The translations under genes and the position numbers were made by a program. DNA of 64,000 bases. Origin: Pseudovirgaria hyperparasitica. Its lineage: Eukaryota. The stretch is from NCBI GenBank assembly GCA_010093815.1, contig ML996580.1. One strand, 5' to 3'. Shown here piece by piece: positions 51,554 through 64,000 of this stretch. Position 1 is the stretch's first letter. Each line of letters opens with the position of its first letter. Under the pieces are notes generated by a model. That model was not told the DNA's origin. It saw nothing but the letters and a program-made list of their open reading frames with translations, and searched no databases.

Positions 51554-52118
51554 AAGCTTCAATAATGATGAAGGATCCTCATAGTGTGGTGTGGCAAAAG
51601 AAGAGAGAGCGAAATAGTAGACTGGCTATACATACTGACTAGGCTTCGAATATACCCAAGACTCAATACATTTCAAAGCACACCACCGTAAATAATCTCT
51701 GTCTACATTCAATTATAACTGCACGAATATATGTGTCAAAACCACGTCCCCTCACAACACATCCCAATCACCCAAACCCACCACCTAACCCATGACCATA
51801 CCCTAAGAAACAAAAGCAACCCCAGCAATCCCATGTAACAAAACCCAGGGCTCCAGTAGTAGTAGATACACAAACAGAAACCCAGAACCAAGTCCTCTCC
51901 AAATCCCCACATATACTCCCTTGAAATGGATCCCCTAATGACCTCCTCGGTAAAGTGCTAGAAGCAGAATGCAAACACGCAGCAAACCACAACAAGCGCA
52001 ACATGAAAAGAAAACACCAGAGCTCTTCTCACCCTCCTCATTGCTCCACAAACATCCAATCCACTCCATTCCACTACCCCCATCACAGCCCTTCCACAAA
52101 ATCCATACAAACCAAGAT

Positions 52119-52297
52119 CTCAAAACCTCAAAACCTCAAAACCTCAAAACCTCAAAANNNNNNNNNNNNNNNNNNNNNNNNNNNNNNNNNNNNNNNNNNN
52201 NNNNNNNNNNNNNNNNNNNNNNNNNNNNNNNNNNNNNNNNNNCTCAAAACCTCAAAATCTCAAAACCTCAAAATCTCAAAACCTCAAAATCTCAAAA
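52119..52297. repeat. 8-bp tandem repeat (CTCAAAAY)n flanking an 85-N assembly gap (52158-52242)
   Basis: The same unit occurs on both sides of the Ns, so the gap probably represents the unresolved array. Confidence 0.92.
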
Positions 52298-53046
52298 CTT
52301 TAAACTTTAAAACCCCCATACTCCCCATTCTCCATCCTATCCTATCCTATCCAACCCACCAATATCATAGATACCTCACTTGTTCCTTCCCTCTTTCCCT
52401 CCTTCCCTCCTTCCTTCCCTCCTCCCTTCTACGCGCATGCAAGCCAAGAACAACCCACTCATCTCATCTGTACCTATATATATATATCTCCCCAAACACG
52501 ACCCCAAAACCGAAAGTGAACAAAACCTTTGTATACACTACGCTCTCTGTCCTTCTACAATGAACATGTAGGGCGGCGGGGGCCTTTGGAGATGCAGTAG
52601 GAAATCCGAGACTTGCACTTTCTGGCTACGCGGGAAGTAGTGTGCTGACTGTAGTGTAATGTTTGTGAGATCTTGATAGGCTTACTCATTGTGGTGTCGT
52701 CGCTGTAGTAGTGGCTGTGATCTACTCTCCTTGCCTCTTGATACACGTTGGACGGAAGGACAGACTCACGGCGATGGCACACACCCACTTTGCATCACAG
52801 AGCACGTCACAGCACAGGCAGGAGAAGACACCAATTGTGATGGTGATGGTACAATATGATCATTAAAACGCAACTCGCCGGTCGCGGTGGTAGTTTATGG
52901 CCATTCCGGGCCCTCGGGTATCTATGTAACCGTTCCGCCTGCCCCATCCCGGGGCAGGCCCCAACACCACGCTATGCAATACATAAAAATACAACAGGCC
53001 AGCAGCTGCCACAACCTTGAAGGTGAGTCCATACAAACGGACTGAA

Positions 53047-56000
53047 TCACCACGCCAGGACTCCACTGAAGGAGCCCACCAACAAGGTTGCGGCGAGCTG
53101 CTGCCTGGCAGCCCCCATCCTCGAGCCTACCACCACCTCCCGGGGAACGTCCCCCCTGGCAATGGCCAGCGCGTTCATGCAGGTGAACACGCCGCAGTCA
53201 CTGGAGTTGTGCTGCTGACCACTGCGAAGGGTGACGTCCGCCCAGTCGGCGGCGGCGTACTCCTCCCCCAACTCCCCCTCCAACCACTTCCTCGCCATCC
53301 CCAAGACGGCTCCACCGGTACCCCCCAACGAGTCCAAGAACTCAATGGTCCTTTCGGACACGTTGATGACTAGGAGGGTCCAGTGGGAACCGCCTTGGTT
53401 GATGGGGAAGAACACCATCTTTGCCTTTAAAAGGCGCTTTTCGGACACCTTTGCCCGACGAGACCAGCGCTGCACACCAGTGTAGCCCTTTGCCTTGATA
53501 ACCTCGTGCCACTTGGACGAGAAGGCGACGAGGGGTGGCACACTGGTGGCAGCGCGGTCGTCGGGGTTGAAGCCCTGCTTTTCGTTCGAGTGCTTGACGA
53601 GTAGGGCGAGGAAGTCGTCAATGCTGTCGTCATTTAGCCAGGCTGACGACCCACCTGCTGCTCCTCTGGCAGGAAACAGGTTCGGCACAATGCGAGCAAG
53701 AGCTGCATCCGTGAAGTTGGCGGTGCGGGTTGTCACAGAGCTTACACCATTGGAGACTGCGGCGTCTATGACTGCGGTAAGACTTGGAGGAATGTCAATG
53801 ATGACTTGGTCTGATGGTGGCTCAAGACCGTCTGATGCTGTATCTGATTCTTGGTCGGAGTATTGAGCACTCTCTTCACTTCCTTCTTCCGATTCGCCTT
53901 CTGACTGGGACTCGGCCTCTGAACCAGCTCCATTGACTGAACTGGAGTCGTCAGAGTCTGAAATGATTGTAACCTGGTTCTTCTCATCATGATGATGATC
54001 ATCATCGTTCTCATCGGAGTCGTCATTGGAGTCGGGGTCGTCTGATATCTGAGGTAAAGTGTGACGAAAGGTGCGGGGAAGATGTTCAAAGGAGCTGACG
54101 TTCGTCTGATCAATGTCGTCGGAGTTGACATTTTCAGGCTCGGGGCCATGTACGAAGGAAGACTCATTTGCAAGGAAGTCGTCTGACGGACCAAACGTGC
54201 TATCTTCGGCAGTGCTGTCATGCTCATATGCATCGAAATCGGAGGCCGGCATCATGGAGGATTCATTCACAAAAGTGGATGTATCACGCGCCGTAGCTTC
54301 CTCGATGAGTTCAGAGAGGTGGTCGGAATGTTCTTCGACAGCGGGGGCCGACAGCTTTGAAACACCACCAATAATGGTAGATTCTTCATGCGTTGTAGCT
54401 TGGTCGAATGCTGAAGGGCCGTCGACAGTATCTTCGAGGAATGAGGCCGGCATCATGGAAGATCCTTCAATGATGGTGGAATTTCCAAACGCCGTAGACT
54501 CATTACCTTCAAACATGGTCGAGTCGTTGAAGAGTCTAGAGTCCTGCAACATTGTTGACTCTTGGAAATGGATGTCTTCATCGTTGATCGCAGCATACTT
54601 GTGCATAGCCATGGTGATAGCCTCCATAGCGATTCTGTGATGCATTTGATCAGCAGCTTCAGTGGCTGTAAGCGAGCTGCGCTCAGGCTCCATGGCCTTC
54701 TGTGCCCTTTGTCGGGCAAGAGGAAGTTTCTCGACAGCGTATCGAATGAGCTCAGCCTGGCGTTCCTTGATCATGCGACTTTCTTGTGCTGGCGTGGTGA
54801 GGAATTGACTGTCTTTGACGTGTCGCTTGATGTCGTTGCACGCGTACTCGAGACAGAGATCTTCAATGATCTCACGAACGGCTTCATCGGAAGCTTTTGC
54901 AGCCCTTGCGTCGATGACCGAGCGACAGAAAGATTCAGACGGCTCGAGGGCGTCAATGTCTTCCTTTGAAGGTGGATCTGCCGGATTGGATATGAAGCCG
55001 GAAAGGTCGAGGTCGGAGGGCCGAGAGGGCCTATTGGTGGTTGTTGTGCTGGTGCCAAGGCCCCATCCGCCAAGCGAGGCACGAGCCACTTCAACGACCG
55101 AGTCATCTTGAGCAGCGGTTCGTGGGGATCTGTCGCGCAGGATGGAAGCTTGGTAGGGGCTTGACTGCAGATCAGAGCCGAGCATGGAGAGGAGGGATGT
55201 ATCCACAGGCTTGGGCTCTCGAGGGTGTCGGAGATGTGGAGGGAGATGCATTCCGTCTGCTTTCTTTCCCTTCCTGGGATCGCGATTGATGGCGAAATCT
55301 TTGTAAAAATGCTTGGGTTGAGCTTGGACACCGCCGTGAAGCGCACTCTGTTTCCATACAAGCGACTTCTTGACAAGTGGGGTCTGCTTTTTGAGGATAC
55401 CTCGAGGACGAGAACTAGCGGAGGTTCTTCGAACTTGTACTGGTGTGACTTCGGGGGCATCATCGAGTGTCGACAGATCTTGGGATTGTGATTCAACGAT
55501 GACAGTGTTCTTGGGAATTTGGGAAATAGCAGACACGTCGGGAGTGATGGGTGCTGGATTTCTGTGAGTAGCTGCATTGCCGCGGGTCGACATATGAAAT
55601 GGTGAGCTGGATCTGAAATCTTCTGGGACATATGCCCTGCGGAGCAAATCCGGGATATCCATTCGATGTTGACGTAAAGAAAAGTCGCACCAACCTGTAG
55701 TCGTGTTTTTCGGCTTCCAAGCTATTTTCTGGTCATCGCAGCTCTCGATGAACTCTTTGAAATGTTCATAACAATGGTAGCCGAGGACCTTCTTTTCCTC
55801 TGCAAGAAGCTCGTCGGATCGGATCTTTTCATTTGCAATTAGTTTGTCAACAAACTCACGGCGGTGAGCTACAGAGTGCTTGATGCGCATCTCGGTCGCG
55901 TTGCCAAATGATGCAATGATTCTTGCGTTGCGCTCCAGGCGTTTCTGTTCAATGTGCCGCAGCTTTGCTGGATTGTCTTCATCAGGCAAGAGCAATCTCC

Positions 56001-57515
56001 TACGAGTAATCAATTGAAAGATGCGATCCTTGAGCCGGCTTTCGATTGCGTGCTCAGTAGGTCTGCCCATTGGCCAACGCCGGCTTTGGAGGGACTTCAC
56101 AACATCGCGCCTGGCCGCCTTGTAGATGGCAGCGACTGGGAGAACGTGAGGAATTACTTGACCTTGACGTCCGAATGAAGGCCTGATGGAAGCTTCATCA
56201 TCACTCGTCTCCTCGTTGACAGCAGCGCGCCACCAGGTTTGCGTGCCTGCAGTGTCGTCGAGATAATCATTGCGATCATCGAGCTCAATGTCATGTTGCA
56301 ACTGGTCGTTTGATGGAGCCGCTTGAGAGCTGTCAATATCATGTTGCAACTGGCCGTTTGACGGTCCTGGTTGAGCGCTGTCAATATCATGTTGCAACTG
56401 GCCGTTTGACGGTCCTGGTTGAGTGTTGTCAGCATCATGTTGTAGCTGGCCGTTTGACGAAGCCGCTTGAGCGCTGTCAGCATCATGTTGCAGCTGGCCG
56501 TTTGACGAAGCCGCTTGAGCGCTGTCAGCATCATGTTGCAGCTGGCCGTTTGACGAAGCCGCTTGAGTGTTGTCAACATCATGTTGTAGCTGGGCATTTG
56601 GCGAACCCGCTTGAGTACTGTCATTAACATGTTGAAGCTGGGCATTTGGCGAACCCGCTTGAGTACTGTCAACATCATGTTGCAGCTGGGCGTTGGACGG
56701 TCTGGCTTGAGCGATGTCGAACTCATGTTGCAGCTGAGCGTTTGACAGAGCTACTTCATTCATGTCAACGTCATTTTGCAGCTGGGCATTTGATGGACCC
56801 GCTTCATTCATGTCAACATCATGTTGCAGCTGGGCATTTGACGGACCCGCTTCATTCATGACAACATCATGTTGCAGCTGGGCATTGGATGGACCCGCTT
56901 GGATGCTTTGCCGTGGTCTCTCAGGGAGTGAATTAGGTACAAATGGATGAGCTGAAGGGCGAGAAACATCAAGAGCGACCCTTTTCGTAGATTTGATCAA
57001 AGATCCCACGAGAATGACCTGTGTCTGAGGACGAGGCCTTTGAACTGGTCTCTGGCGGCGAAACCAAGGAGGGAGAAGACCTCTGACCCTGCCGAGCACA
57101 TTTGCAGGACGAAGAGAAGCTGGCACAGCAAAATAGCTGGCCCGGTTGACTGGGCGGGCGCGAGTAGCGGGTACGGTCCGGGTAGGAGAGCGGACACCTT
57201 GTGTTATCTGCGGAAAGTGTGAGCTCAGACACTAGCTAGGAACAGATCTTTGAAGTTTCATTGGCTTACTGGAAGGTAATTGCGAGGTGACTGGCCCTCG
57301 TCAGGCTCGGGCTCATATTCATATTCAGACTCAGACTCAGATTCAGACTCAGACCCAGACTTGGACTTGGACTCGGATTCAGTGATGGTGGTGGGATCAG
57401 TAGCTACGACACTTGAAGCTTGTGCATTGGCGTTTGCGGTGCTAGACTCGGCCAGGCGTTCGTCAAACTTGCGCTTTTTGGAAGTAGACATTGGAGAAGA
57501 GGTTGGTGAAGACAT
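53047..57515 (-). CDS. ULP1: Ulp1-like SUMO protease (peptidase C48), about 1468 aa; exon 1 57270-57515, exon 2 53047-57207
   Basis: C-terminal WLNDDSIDDFL, FFPINQGGSHWTLLVI (His), FLDSLGG (Asp) and QQHNSSDCGVFTC (Gln/Cys). GTAAGC...CGCAG intron joins the exons in phase 0; N-terminal KKRKF NLS-like motif. Confidence 0.85.
56275..56898 (-). repeat. Coding minisatellite, 13 x 48 bp (16-aa unit AGPSNAQLQHDVDxxQ) in the Ulp1-like N-terminus
   Basis: 13 QLQ(H/N) units counted in the translation; DNA core catgttgcagctgg recurs every 48 nt. Confidence 0.95.
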
Positions 57516-58694
57516 GTTGCGTGCGAGAGGCACGAACAGTCACGAAAGAAAGATGAGAGATGCTTTTCCAGTTTCACGAGAAGAGTAGTTGAAGAAGAAA
57601 AAGTGTTGATGTTTTATCCTTGAAGAAAGATGGGATGGAAGAGAAAGTTGGTGATGTTGCTGAAGGTGAAGATGTTAAAGCGCGCGAAGCTGAAGCTGGG
57701 AGCTGCTGGAGCTTTGACCAATCTGCAATCTGGGGGGCATTTATTCCGCGCTAGTCCACATCCGAACTCGCCTATCCGCATCGGGCCTGTCAAACTCCTT
57801 CGGCGAACCGTTTCAGCCCTATAGACAGAGTTTTCGTGATCAATACCCCTCCATCCCTGCCATTTGCCCCACTATTGTGCTACTCTATACGTTGTAGCTG
57901 TTTGTTTACCACTTCACTCTCTGCTTTTGCGCCTGTTCACTTCCAAGTTCGGTTTGGCGCGGCCTCGTCTCCATCGCATTGAACTTTGTATACAGCAGAT
58001 GATGACGTAGCCTGCACACTTCTCGTGAGCTAAGAACGTACGAATACGAATTCATGTACGAAGCAAGACAGAGTATGCGAGAAGGTACACTAGCCTAAAT
58101 TCCACTTTTCCATGGATGTGGCCTAACGTTGGCTAATAGTCGGGTATCTTGCACGTACCGATCTGCAGTAGGGATGAGAGTCGCGGGGCTCGGAGGATAC
58201 GATATACGAGAGAGAGGACCATATCAATAGAAATGCGTACTCGCGACGATGCCTTGAACCCTTTTTATGCGCACTATATTGGCTTAATAATTGTCTGTCT
58301 GAACCAGCTGTAATTACCGCCCAAAATCGCACCAACAATGAATCCCTTGCATTTATAGAAGAGCCTGCCGGGATGCTGGATGTAGAATAGCCACCACCTT
58401 GTTCATACAATAGACATACAACAGATGATATATCAAGATTATATTGTCCCAATTCCATTGTCGAGAGCGACAGACCGACTACATTACGCCAAGATACCCC
58501 AGATAAATAGCATAATCCATTATTCGAGATGTTCGCCAATTTGTGCGTGAACAACTTCAGCCTGTTTTCGCTTCCGCTCCAACAACGGGGCAAGCACTCG
58601 CGGGTGCAGATATCGTAACGCCATTTAAGTCATAAACCATCACATCCTCTTATTTCTACTACCAGCCGGTTGGCGTTCGACTGTGGCAATGTCT

Positions 58695-59005
58695 TCAGAT
58701 GCCTCCGCCTGCACGAGCGTCAGCCAGCACTTTGTCTGCGGAGTCTGTGCCGCCTGTGCTTCGCCACTCACCCGATCTTGTCGTCGATACGCTGTAGTCG
58801 CCTACCTGCCTCTGCTCCCTCTGCGCAGTGATTGCCCGTGTCTTCATAAGCATGTATGACCCGCCGAGAGAGACGACTCCGAAAAATGCAAGGGCGCGAC
58901 GACTGTTGGATCGTTTGTCAGTGCTTGGCAGACATATTGGGGGTCATTAAGAAGAGTGGGGTAGCGGAGCAAGGATACGAACTTGACAAGCGTACTGAAC
59001 GGCAT
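58695..59005 (-). CDS. 55-aa single-TM microprotein with 3 exons (59005-58983, 58902-58772, 58708-58695)
   Basis: Introns GTTCGT...CACTGAC...AACAG and GTGAGT...GCTGAC...TGCAG give MPFSTLVNRRALAFFGVVSLGGSYMLMKTRAITAQREQRQVGDYSVSTTRSGGGI*. Confidence 0.78.
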
Positions 59006-59411
59006 TTTGGGTATGTCTGGTGAGAATTCGTGCTGATGGAGTTGAGGGAAGGATTGGTGATGGGTATTTGGCAGAGGACAAGGAAGCGGTGTGATGTTGG
59101 GACCAAATGATGGGGCACGCGAGCAGTTGGCCCGTTTATGAAGCTTCCCCAGACCTAGACCCCAGACCGAGACCAGACTGGTGCTGCCGCCAATCGGTAG
59201 CGTCATCCATACATCCATACATACATCATTAGGACATGTCTCGATGCGGGAATAAAATAGGGTTTATGTCAGGGGTCCCTGCAAGCATTCATTCGTCCAT
59301 TCATGCGTCTCGCTAACTGTGCCGAGGCCGATCCTTTATGTACGTTGCCGTACCCTCATCTTTCTATCTTCATCGACATCCTTTCTTCCGACCCTGTACG
59401 CCCCCTTTGGC

Positions 59412-60041
59412 TCAAGCTTTGTTCCAAGAACCAAGGAGCTCGTCCGCCCTCACCACATGTGCGCGCGATGGCAGGATTTGCTCCATCAGGAAGGCATGTA
59501 CGCCGTCCCTTGGATCCCAGCACGCATCCTCGATGACAGTCGTCACGAAACCCTCGTCAGAAGCAGCAATAGCCGTCCGCAGAACAGCACCAGACGTCGC
59601 CAGCCCAAGCACAACTAGACTCTTGATTCCTTTGTCTCGCAATATGTCCATTGCGCCCTCGGACTTCAGGCCAGACACGACGCCTGCAGTCTTGAGGACT
59701 ACGTACTCAACAGGCCCTGCCTTCTGCGATGAGACTAGCTCAGGAGGCTCTGAGAGTGCGACAGCGTCATTTCTGATACTGTCGAGTCTGCCCATGATCA
59801 GCACTGTGTTCTTGCATTGAGGAGGAGGTTTGCTGTTGATATCGATAAGCGAGTGCAAGACTGTGATGCCACGCTCAAGAGCCCATTCCCGAATCATCTG
59901 CGCCTTGGACACTGTCTTGATACCCTTCTGGCCGCATAGTTGGATCGTGTAGCCGTGATAGTCGAGTAGTATAACAGCTGTTTCTGCAGGAGGATACGCG
60001 AGAGGAGATTCGCAGCTGTTCCTGTCAAGTATAGCTGCCAT
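59412..60041 (-). CDS. Isochorismatase-like (cysteine hydrolase fold) protein, intronless
   Basis: TAVILLDYH, VVLK..VVSGL, LRDKGIKSLVVLGLATSGAVLRTA..ASDEGF..TVIEDACWD. Confidence 0.85.
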   Translation of the reverse strand: MAAILDRNSCESPLAYPPAETAVILLDYHGYTIQLCGQKGIKTVSKAQMIREWALERGITVLHSLIDINSKPPPQCKNTVLIMGRLDSIRNDAVALSEPPELVSSQKAGPVEYVVLKTAGVVSGLKSEGAMDILRDKGIKSLVVLGLATSGAVLRTAIAASDEGFVTTVIEDACWDPRDGVHAFLMEQILPSRAHVVRADELLGSWNKA

Positions 60042-60351
60042 GGTTTGACTTCATATGCTGTTAAATGTGAAAACAAGGTTCTGAACAGATGCTGCTCGCT
60101 GCTGATGTCGTATGTACCATTTTGAACATCATGAATGAAGTCTTATACTTGTTGTCCATATACAGGCGTGCCGGTTCCGGCGATATCTTTAGGGCGGTAC
60201 CGGCTGCAGTTACGGGTAGGACTTTAGATTAGATGTCCGGAGATAACGCACGGACTCGAATTTTTTCGAAATCTTGGCATTCTACTTCGTCTCTCGCGTT
60301 GGCGAATACTGCACGCTTCCAGGCTTCATTCTGAGCTGCCATTGCAGAACC

Positions 60352-62941: not shown

Positions 62942-64000
62942 CTAAAAATTCATCAAATCGCGCCCAAACATCGCCCGCTTACTCCAATCCATCGCCAGCA
63001 GCATCCTCGTCCGCAAGCTCACGCTCTGCGCAAAATACACACTCCGCCAGAGATACACGGCCAACAGCCCGCCCGAGAAGCTGATGCCGCCAAAGTCAAA
63101 CACCGCCGCATTCCCGACATACGCCAGACTGCCCATGTGCTTGTACTCAAACGCCTTGTAGACGGCCTCGTCGAGATCGCCGTAGCTGACCTCGTTCAGC
63201 TTCATGCCGGGCGCCATCTGGGCCATGCGGGTGAGTTTGCGGGCGAGGTACTGGCCCTGCTGGTGGGCGCGCTGGGCGGTGGCGGGGAGGCTGGTGAGTT
63301 TGCTGTCGATCTGGGCGAGGAGTTCGCGGAGCTCGCCAAAGTCGAGGGTGCCGGATTGGTCCTTGTCGTACTGCTGGAAGAGCTTGTCGAGGCGGCGGAG
63401 GTGGTCGCTGGCTTGGGGGAAGCGTGCCTTGACGCGCTGGGCGACCTTGCGCCAGTCGGAGAAGCTGATCTGCATGCGCTCCGGGTCCTGGCCCTTTTCC
63501 CAGGCGAGCGTGCGTAGGAAGGTGACTATATGGTCGGATATGTTGTTCTGTACGGTGGAACAGTCGCCGACGGCGTAGACGTCACCGAGTGGTGCACCGA
63601 TCAGGCGGAGGTGGGTATCGGTTTCAAGAGCGTGCCGGTTGTTTTGCCCGTCAAGCTTCTTAGCGAGCTTCTGGCAAAACTCGGTTTGTGCTAGGAAGAG
63701 TTAGCATTGTCTGGGACGAGACGGCATGATACATACAAACTCCAGTCGACCAAAGGCAGAATCCCATTGGAATCTCCTTGGTGATGACTTGGTTGTTCTC
63801 GTCCTTTTGAGTGAACAGGATCTTATCGGCCTGAACTTCCGCTACTCGTGAATTGGTGAGCACATCGACTTGGTCGTGTGCAAATCGGTCCTGTTGATGC
63901 CTATAAGCCACAAATCCATAGTTATATGGTCCAAATACTTACTTCTGCATATTTCGATAGCGCTTCATCATAGGTGTTCAGGATATGCCCTCGACTTTGT
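62942..64000 (-). CDS. 3' part of a mitochondrial type II (external) NAD(P)H dehydrogenase with Ca2+-binding EF-hand (64-kDa NDE1 type)
   Basis: ILNTYDEALS.YAE, GFCLWSTGV, DVYAVGDC, EF-hand DKDQSGTLDFGE, LPATAQRAHQQGQYL, FEYKHMGSLAYVG and YLWRSVY..QSVSLRTR; runs off the window end. Confidence 0.92.

Follow-up and report, generated by a model that had tools for sequence, protein, structure and literature searches.

A spliced 55-residue microprotein of Pseudovirgaria hyperparasitica with a nearly fixed C-terminal tail and a putative membrane anchor

Introduction

Which role could be played by a protein of 55 residues whose gene is split into three exons, the last of them with only 14 coding nucleotides? 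This question is raised by a locus on contig ML996580.1 of the fungus Pseudovirgaria hyperparasitica (GCA_010093815.1), which was analysed within a stretch of 64,000 nt, designated the window. An earlier note, made from the DNA letters alone, had proposed a hidden gene for a conserved, probably mitochondrial membrane microprotein with a functional glycine-rich C-terminus. The family to which this protein belongs is old, has no consistent Pfam match and is single-copy in the window genome, and its member in Neurospora crassa makes it testable in a model fungus. It is rated here as an undescribed family of a known kind, the small membrane regulators, from which its invariant tail distinguishes it.

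A transcribed and spliced gene with three exons

The gene comprises the following elements:

58983..59005, minus strand: exon 1 (23 nt), encoding residues 1-7 and two bases of codon 8; CCCAAA precedes the start codon
58903..58982, minus strand: intron 1 (80 nt, phase 2), donor GTTCGT, CTGAC at 58921-58917, acceptor CAG; skipped in X1 and X2
58772..58902, minus strand: exon 2 (131 nt), encoding the basic flank, the hydrophobic helix, a helical polar spacer and the larger part of the tail motif
58845..58895, minus strand: hydrophobic segment, residues 11-27, the putative single membrane anchor (mean Kyte-Doolittle hydropathy 1.69 over 17 residues)
58772..58796, minus strand: start of the conserved tail, covering residues 44-51 plus base 1 of the Gly52 codon
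58709..58771, minus strand: intron 2 (63 nt, phase 1), within the first Gly codon of the tail, donor GTGAGT, CTGAC at 58723-58719, acceptor CAG; stop-free
58695..58708, minus strand: coding part of exon 3 (14 nt), GGGI and stop
58448..59114, minus strand: spliced contig of run X2, with about 110 nt before the start and about 250 nt past the stop; the contig ends are not transcript ends

The CDS of 168 nt encodes 55 residues identical to the protein predicted in the earlier note. In one contig from each of the runs X1 and X2, both skips (80 and 63 nt) are found exactly at the predicted junctions 58983/58902 and 58772/58708. An identical 55-aa protein is public as hypothetical protein EJ05DRAFT_479470 (P0002) of a Dothideomycete. 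This confirms the proposed splicing of three exons into one frame: The gene is transcribed and spliced. The RNA nature of the contigs is inferred from the clean skips; X1 and X2 derive from one sample of one study, and their library type is unrecorded. They are possibly the data that underlie the public annotation and would then not be independent of it. A retrocopy is unlikely because the search of the fungus' own genome returned only a single match, the microprotein gene itself. The attribute 'hidden' applies to the open reading frame track, from which the gene is indeed missing, but not to NCBI, where it is already annotated as an uncharacterised gene.

Both introns contain the predicted CTGAC branch sites and CAG acceptors, and the branch A lies 16 nt (intron 1) and 12 nt (intron 2) from the 3' end of the intron. 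The donors had been regarded as canonical. This holds for GTGAGT of intron 2, whereas GTTCGT of intron 1 is weaker than the GTA-type donors of relatives. Use of another potential donor, GTACGC at 58995, would cause a frameshift and is not observed in the X1 and X2 contigs. Retention of intron 2 would result in a 76-aa form with 21 additional residues in the tail, a broken motif and a preserved GGGI end. Such a form is not present in the X1 and X2 contigs. Twelve database entries display this read-through shape. A conserved retention was rejected, as the length of intron 2 is a multiple of three in only five of 13 relatives.

Gene structure and selection in relatives

A metagenome scan yielded 14 loci, of which 13 were used after exclusion of L015, a partial match of 20 residues. 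In all 13 loci, which include the identical or nearly identical pairs L010/L011 and L006/L008, an intron interrupts the first Gly codon of the tail and is followed by a 14-nt exon encoding GGGI and the stop; exon 3 lies outside the search pattern by which the loci had been recovered. A first exon of 23 nt with a phase-2 intron is present in 12 of the 13. This means, the tiny last exon pointed out in the earlier note and the intron phase are kept in relatives. As a control for chance, the sequence of an acceptor, GGG[IV] and a stop was counted; it occurs 14 times in 336,376 nt (both strands), once in the window and once in each of the 13 loci.

The two introns of the window gene are typical of Dothideomycete-like loci. 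Gene calls of the Sordariomycete type on long contigs are unbroken up to the tail; the point at which they diverge from annotated relatives lies immediately ahead of the helix's basic flank. This is indirect evidence that Sordariomycete genes would possess a similar intron 1 and lack intron 2.

Comparison of 12 exon 2 sequences, after two sequences with indels had been dropped, revealed pN values below pS in all 65 non-identical pairs (medians 0.27 vs 0.79). For the last ten codons of exon 2, the medians are 0.04 (pN) and 0.80 (pS), the low pN being partly built in by the search pattern. Silent variation is found in the Arg, Ser and Gly codons, which shows that the peptide and not the RNA is under selection.

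Range of the family

A search with P0002 without filter gave 24 matches comprising 23 relatives; the top match, the 2240-aa repeat protein P0003, is spurious. A profile search returned 89 matches among 1448 candidates and a larger one 309 among 7999 scored sequences, and details on members are based on the best 120 of these 309. P0001, P0003, P0114 and P0194 were excluded before counting, P0114 and P0194 being unrelated cluster members. Later searches used tail words, so that relatives without a tail would be missed. The named members comprise many Dothideomycetes, Xylona (Xylonomycetes) and Sordariomycetes including N. crassa NCU08282 and Sordaria SMAC_00932. Judged by sequence similarity, the family extends over three or more classes of filamentous fungi, in agreement with the conservation assumed in the earlier note. 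Among the best 120 of the 309 matches, names of Eurotiomycetes, Leotiomycetes or yeasts are absent. Neither the 55 pattern stretches in prokaryote genomes nor the sets of 5 and 32 in viral contigs contained a confirmed relative. A quick tree from 72 columns only resolves the split between two clades.

NCU08282 (Q7S8B1), SMAC_00932, Pyrenophora PTRG_09122 and Xylona L228DRAFT_245837 have the anatomy and the RSGGG[IV] end of the window protein. Sordariomycete members differ by a longer leader and an N-E-x-A-Q helix. The records of the unnamed 'hypothetical' orthologues contain no named function. With 102 members, Pfam searches gave 19 weak scattered families, none of them in more than four members, and NCBIfam likewise provided no consistent family. 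A search of the window genome for other intronless genes that end in RSGGG[IV] and a stop gave 10 matches vs 18 in the control; six of the 10 were checked and are short chance frames. Full-text and topic searches of the literature (openly licensed PMC articles and bioRxiv, main texts) yielded a single relevant mention, that of NCU08282 as a hypothetical protein among the NUC-3 targets. No such family is named in the parts covered of a review on fungal microproteins (PMC11413187), and an RSGGG match in PMC9801653 is an unrelated ORF. Within this literature no function is assigned to the family, which had been described in the earlier note as uncharacterised.

A near-invariant C-terminal tail

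RSGGG is found in 132 of the 191 family sequences, and every one of these 132 terminates after a single further residue, Ile or Val. Of the remaining 59, 57 reach RSG and from there on differ, in most cases by continuing with Thr, Met or Arg. These 57 look like gene calls with intron read-through, as the GT of the donor would give. The 14-nt last exon is often missed in gene calls, so that databases conceal the motif. In the 102 full-length members of alignment A4, which were chosen for an intact tail, column entropy amounts to 0.59 bits at residues 44-55 and to 2.07-2.29 bits in other segments. The consensus reads [DN]-[YF]-x-V-[ST]-V-D-R-S-G-G-G-[IV]-COOH and lies 12-24 residues past the hydrophobic helix. 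The end given in the earlier note, [YF]-x-V-x-x-x-RSGGG[IV] (with Tyr alone at the first position there), is found in 89 of the 102 selected full-length members. The strongest constraint is indeed at the Gly-rich C-terminus, but the motif extends beyond the glycines, as it spans about 12 residues and includes the fixed final Ile or Val.

The tail also carries much of the similarity between the two clades. Their full profiles align over 54 columns with a probability of 97.8. Upon removal of the last 12 residues, cross-clade profile scores have medians of 1.3-1.4 bits, compared to a 95th percentile of 1.4-1.7 for shuffled sequences. The layout of a basic leader, a hydrophobic helix and a polar spacer of 12-24 residues is thus kept, although the sequence of these parts drifts; the tail, in contrast, hardly varies. 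Its 12 residues probably serve as a signal by which a partner docks. A near-invariant free C-terminus on a fast-changing anchor implies that the partner has an equally conserved binding pocket.

A different use of the tail is suggested by its wording. RSGGGV equals, over six residues, the start of the selectivity filter of IP3R1, given as 2544-RSGGGVGD-2551 in PMC9663519. According to PMC4150065, fungi display IP3-linked Ca2+ release without a recognised IP3 receptor. In an oligomer, the membrane-tethered tails might build or block a cation filter similar to that of IP3 and ryanodine receptors, in which the free carboxylate would replace the filter Asp. If this were true, the family would be a candidate part of the channel for IP3-linked Ca2+ release reported in filamentous fungi, whose gene is unrecognised. 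However, such a word is expected by chance 0.6-3 times per fungal-sized and 2-8 times per human-sized proteome. Pore helix, filter Gly-Asp and inner helix are all lacking, and the word is here the free C-terminus of a 55-residue protein with GGG[IV] as the end in each of the 132 sequences. Furthermore, the leader looks mitochondrial. A role as ion filter is therefore hardly credible.

Leader and hydrophobic helix

Family members comprise 51-82 residues. The best 17-residue hydropathy has a median of 1.69 and a range of 1.0-2.4 in 102 members (Kyte-Doolittle scale). This is borderline, with 58 of the 102 reaching at least 1.6. The segment is rich in Leu, Gly and Ser or in Ala, Leu and Gly. Predicted structures consist of a single long helix (residues 9-42 in P0002, 21-54 in P0156) and a tail that is unstructured or of low confidence. 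Traits of single-pass microproteins are thus present: fewer than 100 residues, one hydrophobic helix and, judged by composition, an Arg-rich, acid-poor N-terminal segment. Fold searches with the single-helix model yielded no Foldseek match, and the best VIA hit (Z 4.6) concerned generic helices. Profile searches against solved structures only gave noise resembling signal peptides or generic helices. The homodimer prediction, made without an alignment, scored 0.01.

The segment before the helix contains about 19-20% Arg and forms a leader of about 21 residues in Sordariomycetes. Acidic residues are found in the leader of one of 37 Dothideomycete members and, beyond residue 2, of three of 61 Sordariomycete members; in two neighbouring proteins they amount to 11%. 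A -3R presequence pattern is described in PMC8847149. Widened to Thr and scored as R-x-[FYL]-[AST], it occurs in 19 of 37 Dothideomycetes (shuffles: mean 4.9, maximum 12) and in 14 of 61 Sordariomycetes (mean 5.4, maximum 14), counts that are non-independent because the sequences are related by descent. This excess is no more than a hint at a mitochondrial presequence. In the window protein, the R-x-L-A match overlaps the helix and is unconvincing as a cleavage site.

In Sordariomycetes such as P0172 and P0156, the hydrophobic helix is followed by [LMI]-x-x-N-E-x-A-Q, with N in 61 of 61 and Q in 60 of 61 members. This stretch is a second conserved surface in Sordariomycetes and is absent from Dothideomycete members.

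The confinement of conservation to the C-terminus is also seen in peptide precursors. Hence, leader and helix might be removed by signal peptidase or by the mitochondrial inner membrane peptidase to release a soluble ligand of about 22 residues. Possible cleavage regions exist, since the helix is succeeded by a small-x-small-like stretch in 28 of 37 Dothideomycetes and by N-[ED] in 61 of 61 Sordariomycetes. However, the Imp1 motif [IV][HDFM]N|[DE], taken from PMC8835746, was found in none of the 102 members. A hydrophobic -3 residue is present in only seven of 61 Sordariomycetes and N[DE] in only one of 37 Dothideomycetes. The L/M/I-x-x-N-E-x-A-Q spacing would be better explained as one face of the predicted helix, and the basic residues come after the hydrophobic core. 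Release of a soluble peptide is regarded as rather improbable.

Proposed mode of action

The reading preferred here is that of a single-copy gene for a membrane-tethered peptide ligand, which would act as a regulated accessory factor, probably in mitochondria. In a first step, the hydrophobic helix would very probably span the membrane once. Second, the leader, rich in Arg and free of acids, would together with the weakly hydrophobic helix and its many Ala and Gly residues direct the protein to mitochondria; the odds are slightly in favour of this location. In the simplest case it would sit in the inner membrane, and its tail would face the intermembrane space. Third, it is expected with good confidence that the polar helix would keep the tail off the bilayer, that Y-x-V-x-V would bind a conserved partner as an added strand, and that the three glycines would allow the terminal Ile or Val and its carboxylate to enter a narrow pocket. 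Fourth, the protein would likely be an accessory factor under regulation, which serves to tune, assemble or recruit its partner, rather than a constant structural subunit. Because these steps are linked, the reading as a whole is tentative and is given somewhat less than an even chance. Identification of the partner would reveal a novel interaction of filamentous fungi that relies on a short motif.

Expression of the Neurospora orthologue

NCU08282 encodes a hypothetical protein; its promoter is bound by NUC-3 and it is repressed by NUC-3 (PMC12506109). In the data of the same study, its mRNA drops under phosphate starvation from about 59 to 15 TPM (log2 -2.42; about 5-fold). In a second experiment it amounts to 1-6 TPM without an effect of nuc-1. 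In the absence of nuc-3 it rises from 25-50 to about 210 TPM (log2 2.43; about 5-fold). Across conditions, the values range from 1 to 222 TPM, compared to 229-1953 TPM for Tom7, ATP synthase f and CoxVIb in the same expression file. NCU08282 is unlisted in the covered part of the supplement to a mitochondria-enriched proteome of N. crassa that lists Tom7 and ATP synthase subunits (PMC8877502). Its low expression or small size could explain this absence. It is likewise not contained in the AOD2/AOD5 ChIP supplements of PMC5295593 (12 of 15 files) nor in the Podospora re-annotation supplements. The low, strongly variable expression and the absence from one mitochondrial proteome point to a regulated accessory protein and not to a core respiratory subunit.

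These data bear on the compartment. Sarcolipin and yeast Pmp1 provide models for a tethered tail in the secretory pathway, where the protein would be a signal-anchored regulator of a pump, a channel or a phosphate-related enzyme of the ER, Golgi, vacuolar or plasma membrane. In support of this, NUC-3 directly represses NCU08282 as well as pho-7, pho-2, the ion ATPase trm-1 and a homologue of the vacuolar polyphosphate polymerase (PMC12506109). The gap in the mitochondrial proteome points in the same direction. Most genes targeted by NUC-3 concern phosphate, the vacuole or transport and not mitochondria, which speaks against the mitochondrial reading. However, the moderately hydrophobic, Ala/Gly-rich helix and the Arg-rich, acid-free leader of about 21 residues in Sordariomycetes argue against a secretory location. 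Furthermore, the motif CACGTG is absent upstream of the gene in the window and in all 13 loci, and the phosphate link may hence be confined to Neurospora rather than conserved. Conserved PAC or RRPE elements were not found upstream in the window and the 13 loci either. A secretory location is unlikely. The composition of the leader fits a mitochondrial one, which we infer although NCU08282 is missing from one proteome supplement.

Relation to HIG1 and other small membrane proteins

Three members (P0055, P0141 and P0142) are labelled 'HIG1 domain-containing protein' in UniRef. With HIG1/Rcf1/Rcf2 proteins (PF04588), the family shares small size and membrane type besides the name on these three members. 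HIG1/Rcf proteins form a two-helix hairpin, whereas the microproteins have one hydrophobic segment. Nearest named neighbours by ESM Atlas features are DUF4748 (PF15932), SMIM20/MITRAC7 (PF15061), COX6C (PF02937) and DUF4500 (PF14937) at 0.82-0.86, which is below the threshold of 0.9 for a lead in language-model feature similarity; those neighbours that do reach 0.9 are clusters from Ascomycota to which no family is assigned. The four named families resemble the microprotein in size, basic leader, single helix and short tail. They differ in that none of their profiles matches in the 102 members, and the invariant 12-residue tail was not traced to any of them by the searches run.

It is conceivable that the microprotein is a HIG1/Rcf member or a diverged constant subunit of a respiratory complex, the ATP synthase or a translocase, as the UniRef label and these feature neighbours would suggest. 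However, HIG_1_N (PF04588) matches in 0 of 102 members at E<=1, so that the automatic label is unsupported. The two HIG_1_N genes of the genome lie elsewhere and score as noise on the family profile. In addition, expression of NCU08282 is much lower and more variable than that of the three structural mitochondrial subunits. This assignment is considered improbable. By analogy, the tethered ligand probably works like the small single-pass proteins of the mitochondrial inner membrane, i.e. as an accessory membrane microprotein.

Genomic neighbourhood

The following neighbours of the microprotein gene were located:

59412-60050 of the window, minus strand: isochorismatase-family gene (PF00857), between ESF1 and the microprotein gene
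62942-64000 of the window, minus strand, and L002:12803-15082 and L008:113-1012: gene of an EF-hand type II NADH dehydrogenase, on differing sides in the three genomes
53047-57231 of the window, minus strand: frame of 1394 codons with a C-terminal Ulp1/C48 protease domain, downstream of the microprotein gene

ESF1 lies upstream on the opposite strand in eight of nine loci with at least 1 kb of upstream sequence, in seven of them within about 0.8 kb. The isochorismatase gene is absent from all related loci examined; apparently it was inserted, in this lineage, between two genes that otherwise form a head-to-head pair. In X1, one contig of 1545 nt (58449-60136, minus strand) joins this upstream gene to the spliced microprotein gene; in X2, the two genes are found in two contigs separated by a gap at 59115-59234. 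Read-through or overlapping transcripts with the isochorismatase gene are possible, and the two-gene contig does not prove one transcript.

The Ulp1-family gene just downstream draws attention to a further reading of the tail. In their spacing, the hydrophobic residues and Gly-Gly would resemble the ends of SUMO and ubiquitin. The tail might be trimmed after Gly-Gly for activation, conjugation or sulfur transfer, or it might serve as a decoy of a SUMO/ubiquitin protease. However, precursors of ubiquitin-like proteins carry variable extensions, in contrast to the one fixed Ile or Val at the end of 132 of 132 sequences. Furthermore, the models predict one long helix without strands and thus no beta-grasp, no such Pfam match was found, and the Ulp1-family ORF is without a match in any of the 14 related loci. 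A ubiquitin-like tail is accordingly very improbable.

Downstream of the gene in L002 (9153-12121), a neighbour absent from the window comprises two frames of about 120 and 700-800 codons without a Pfam match. It is matched in L003, L005, L007 and L010-L014 and partly in L004. In Neurospora, the adjacent gene numbers correspond to a hypothetical protein, a channel protein and squalene epoxidase. The neighbours are read as ordinary local gene-order conservation without a functional clue. Two repeats were observed on the downstream side. Near its N-terminus, the Ulp1/C48 frame contains units of about 17 residues (...AQLQHD...) repeated in tandem, and a short tandem repeat at about 52100-52300 of the window lies beside a run of N (85 N in the window), which probably represents an assembly gap within the repeat.
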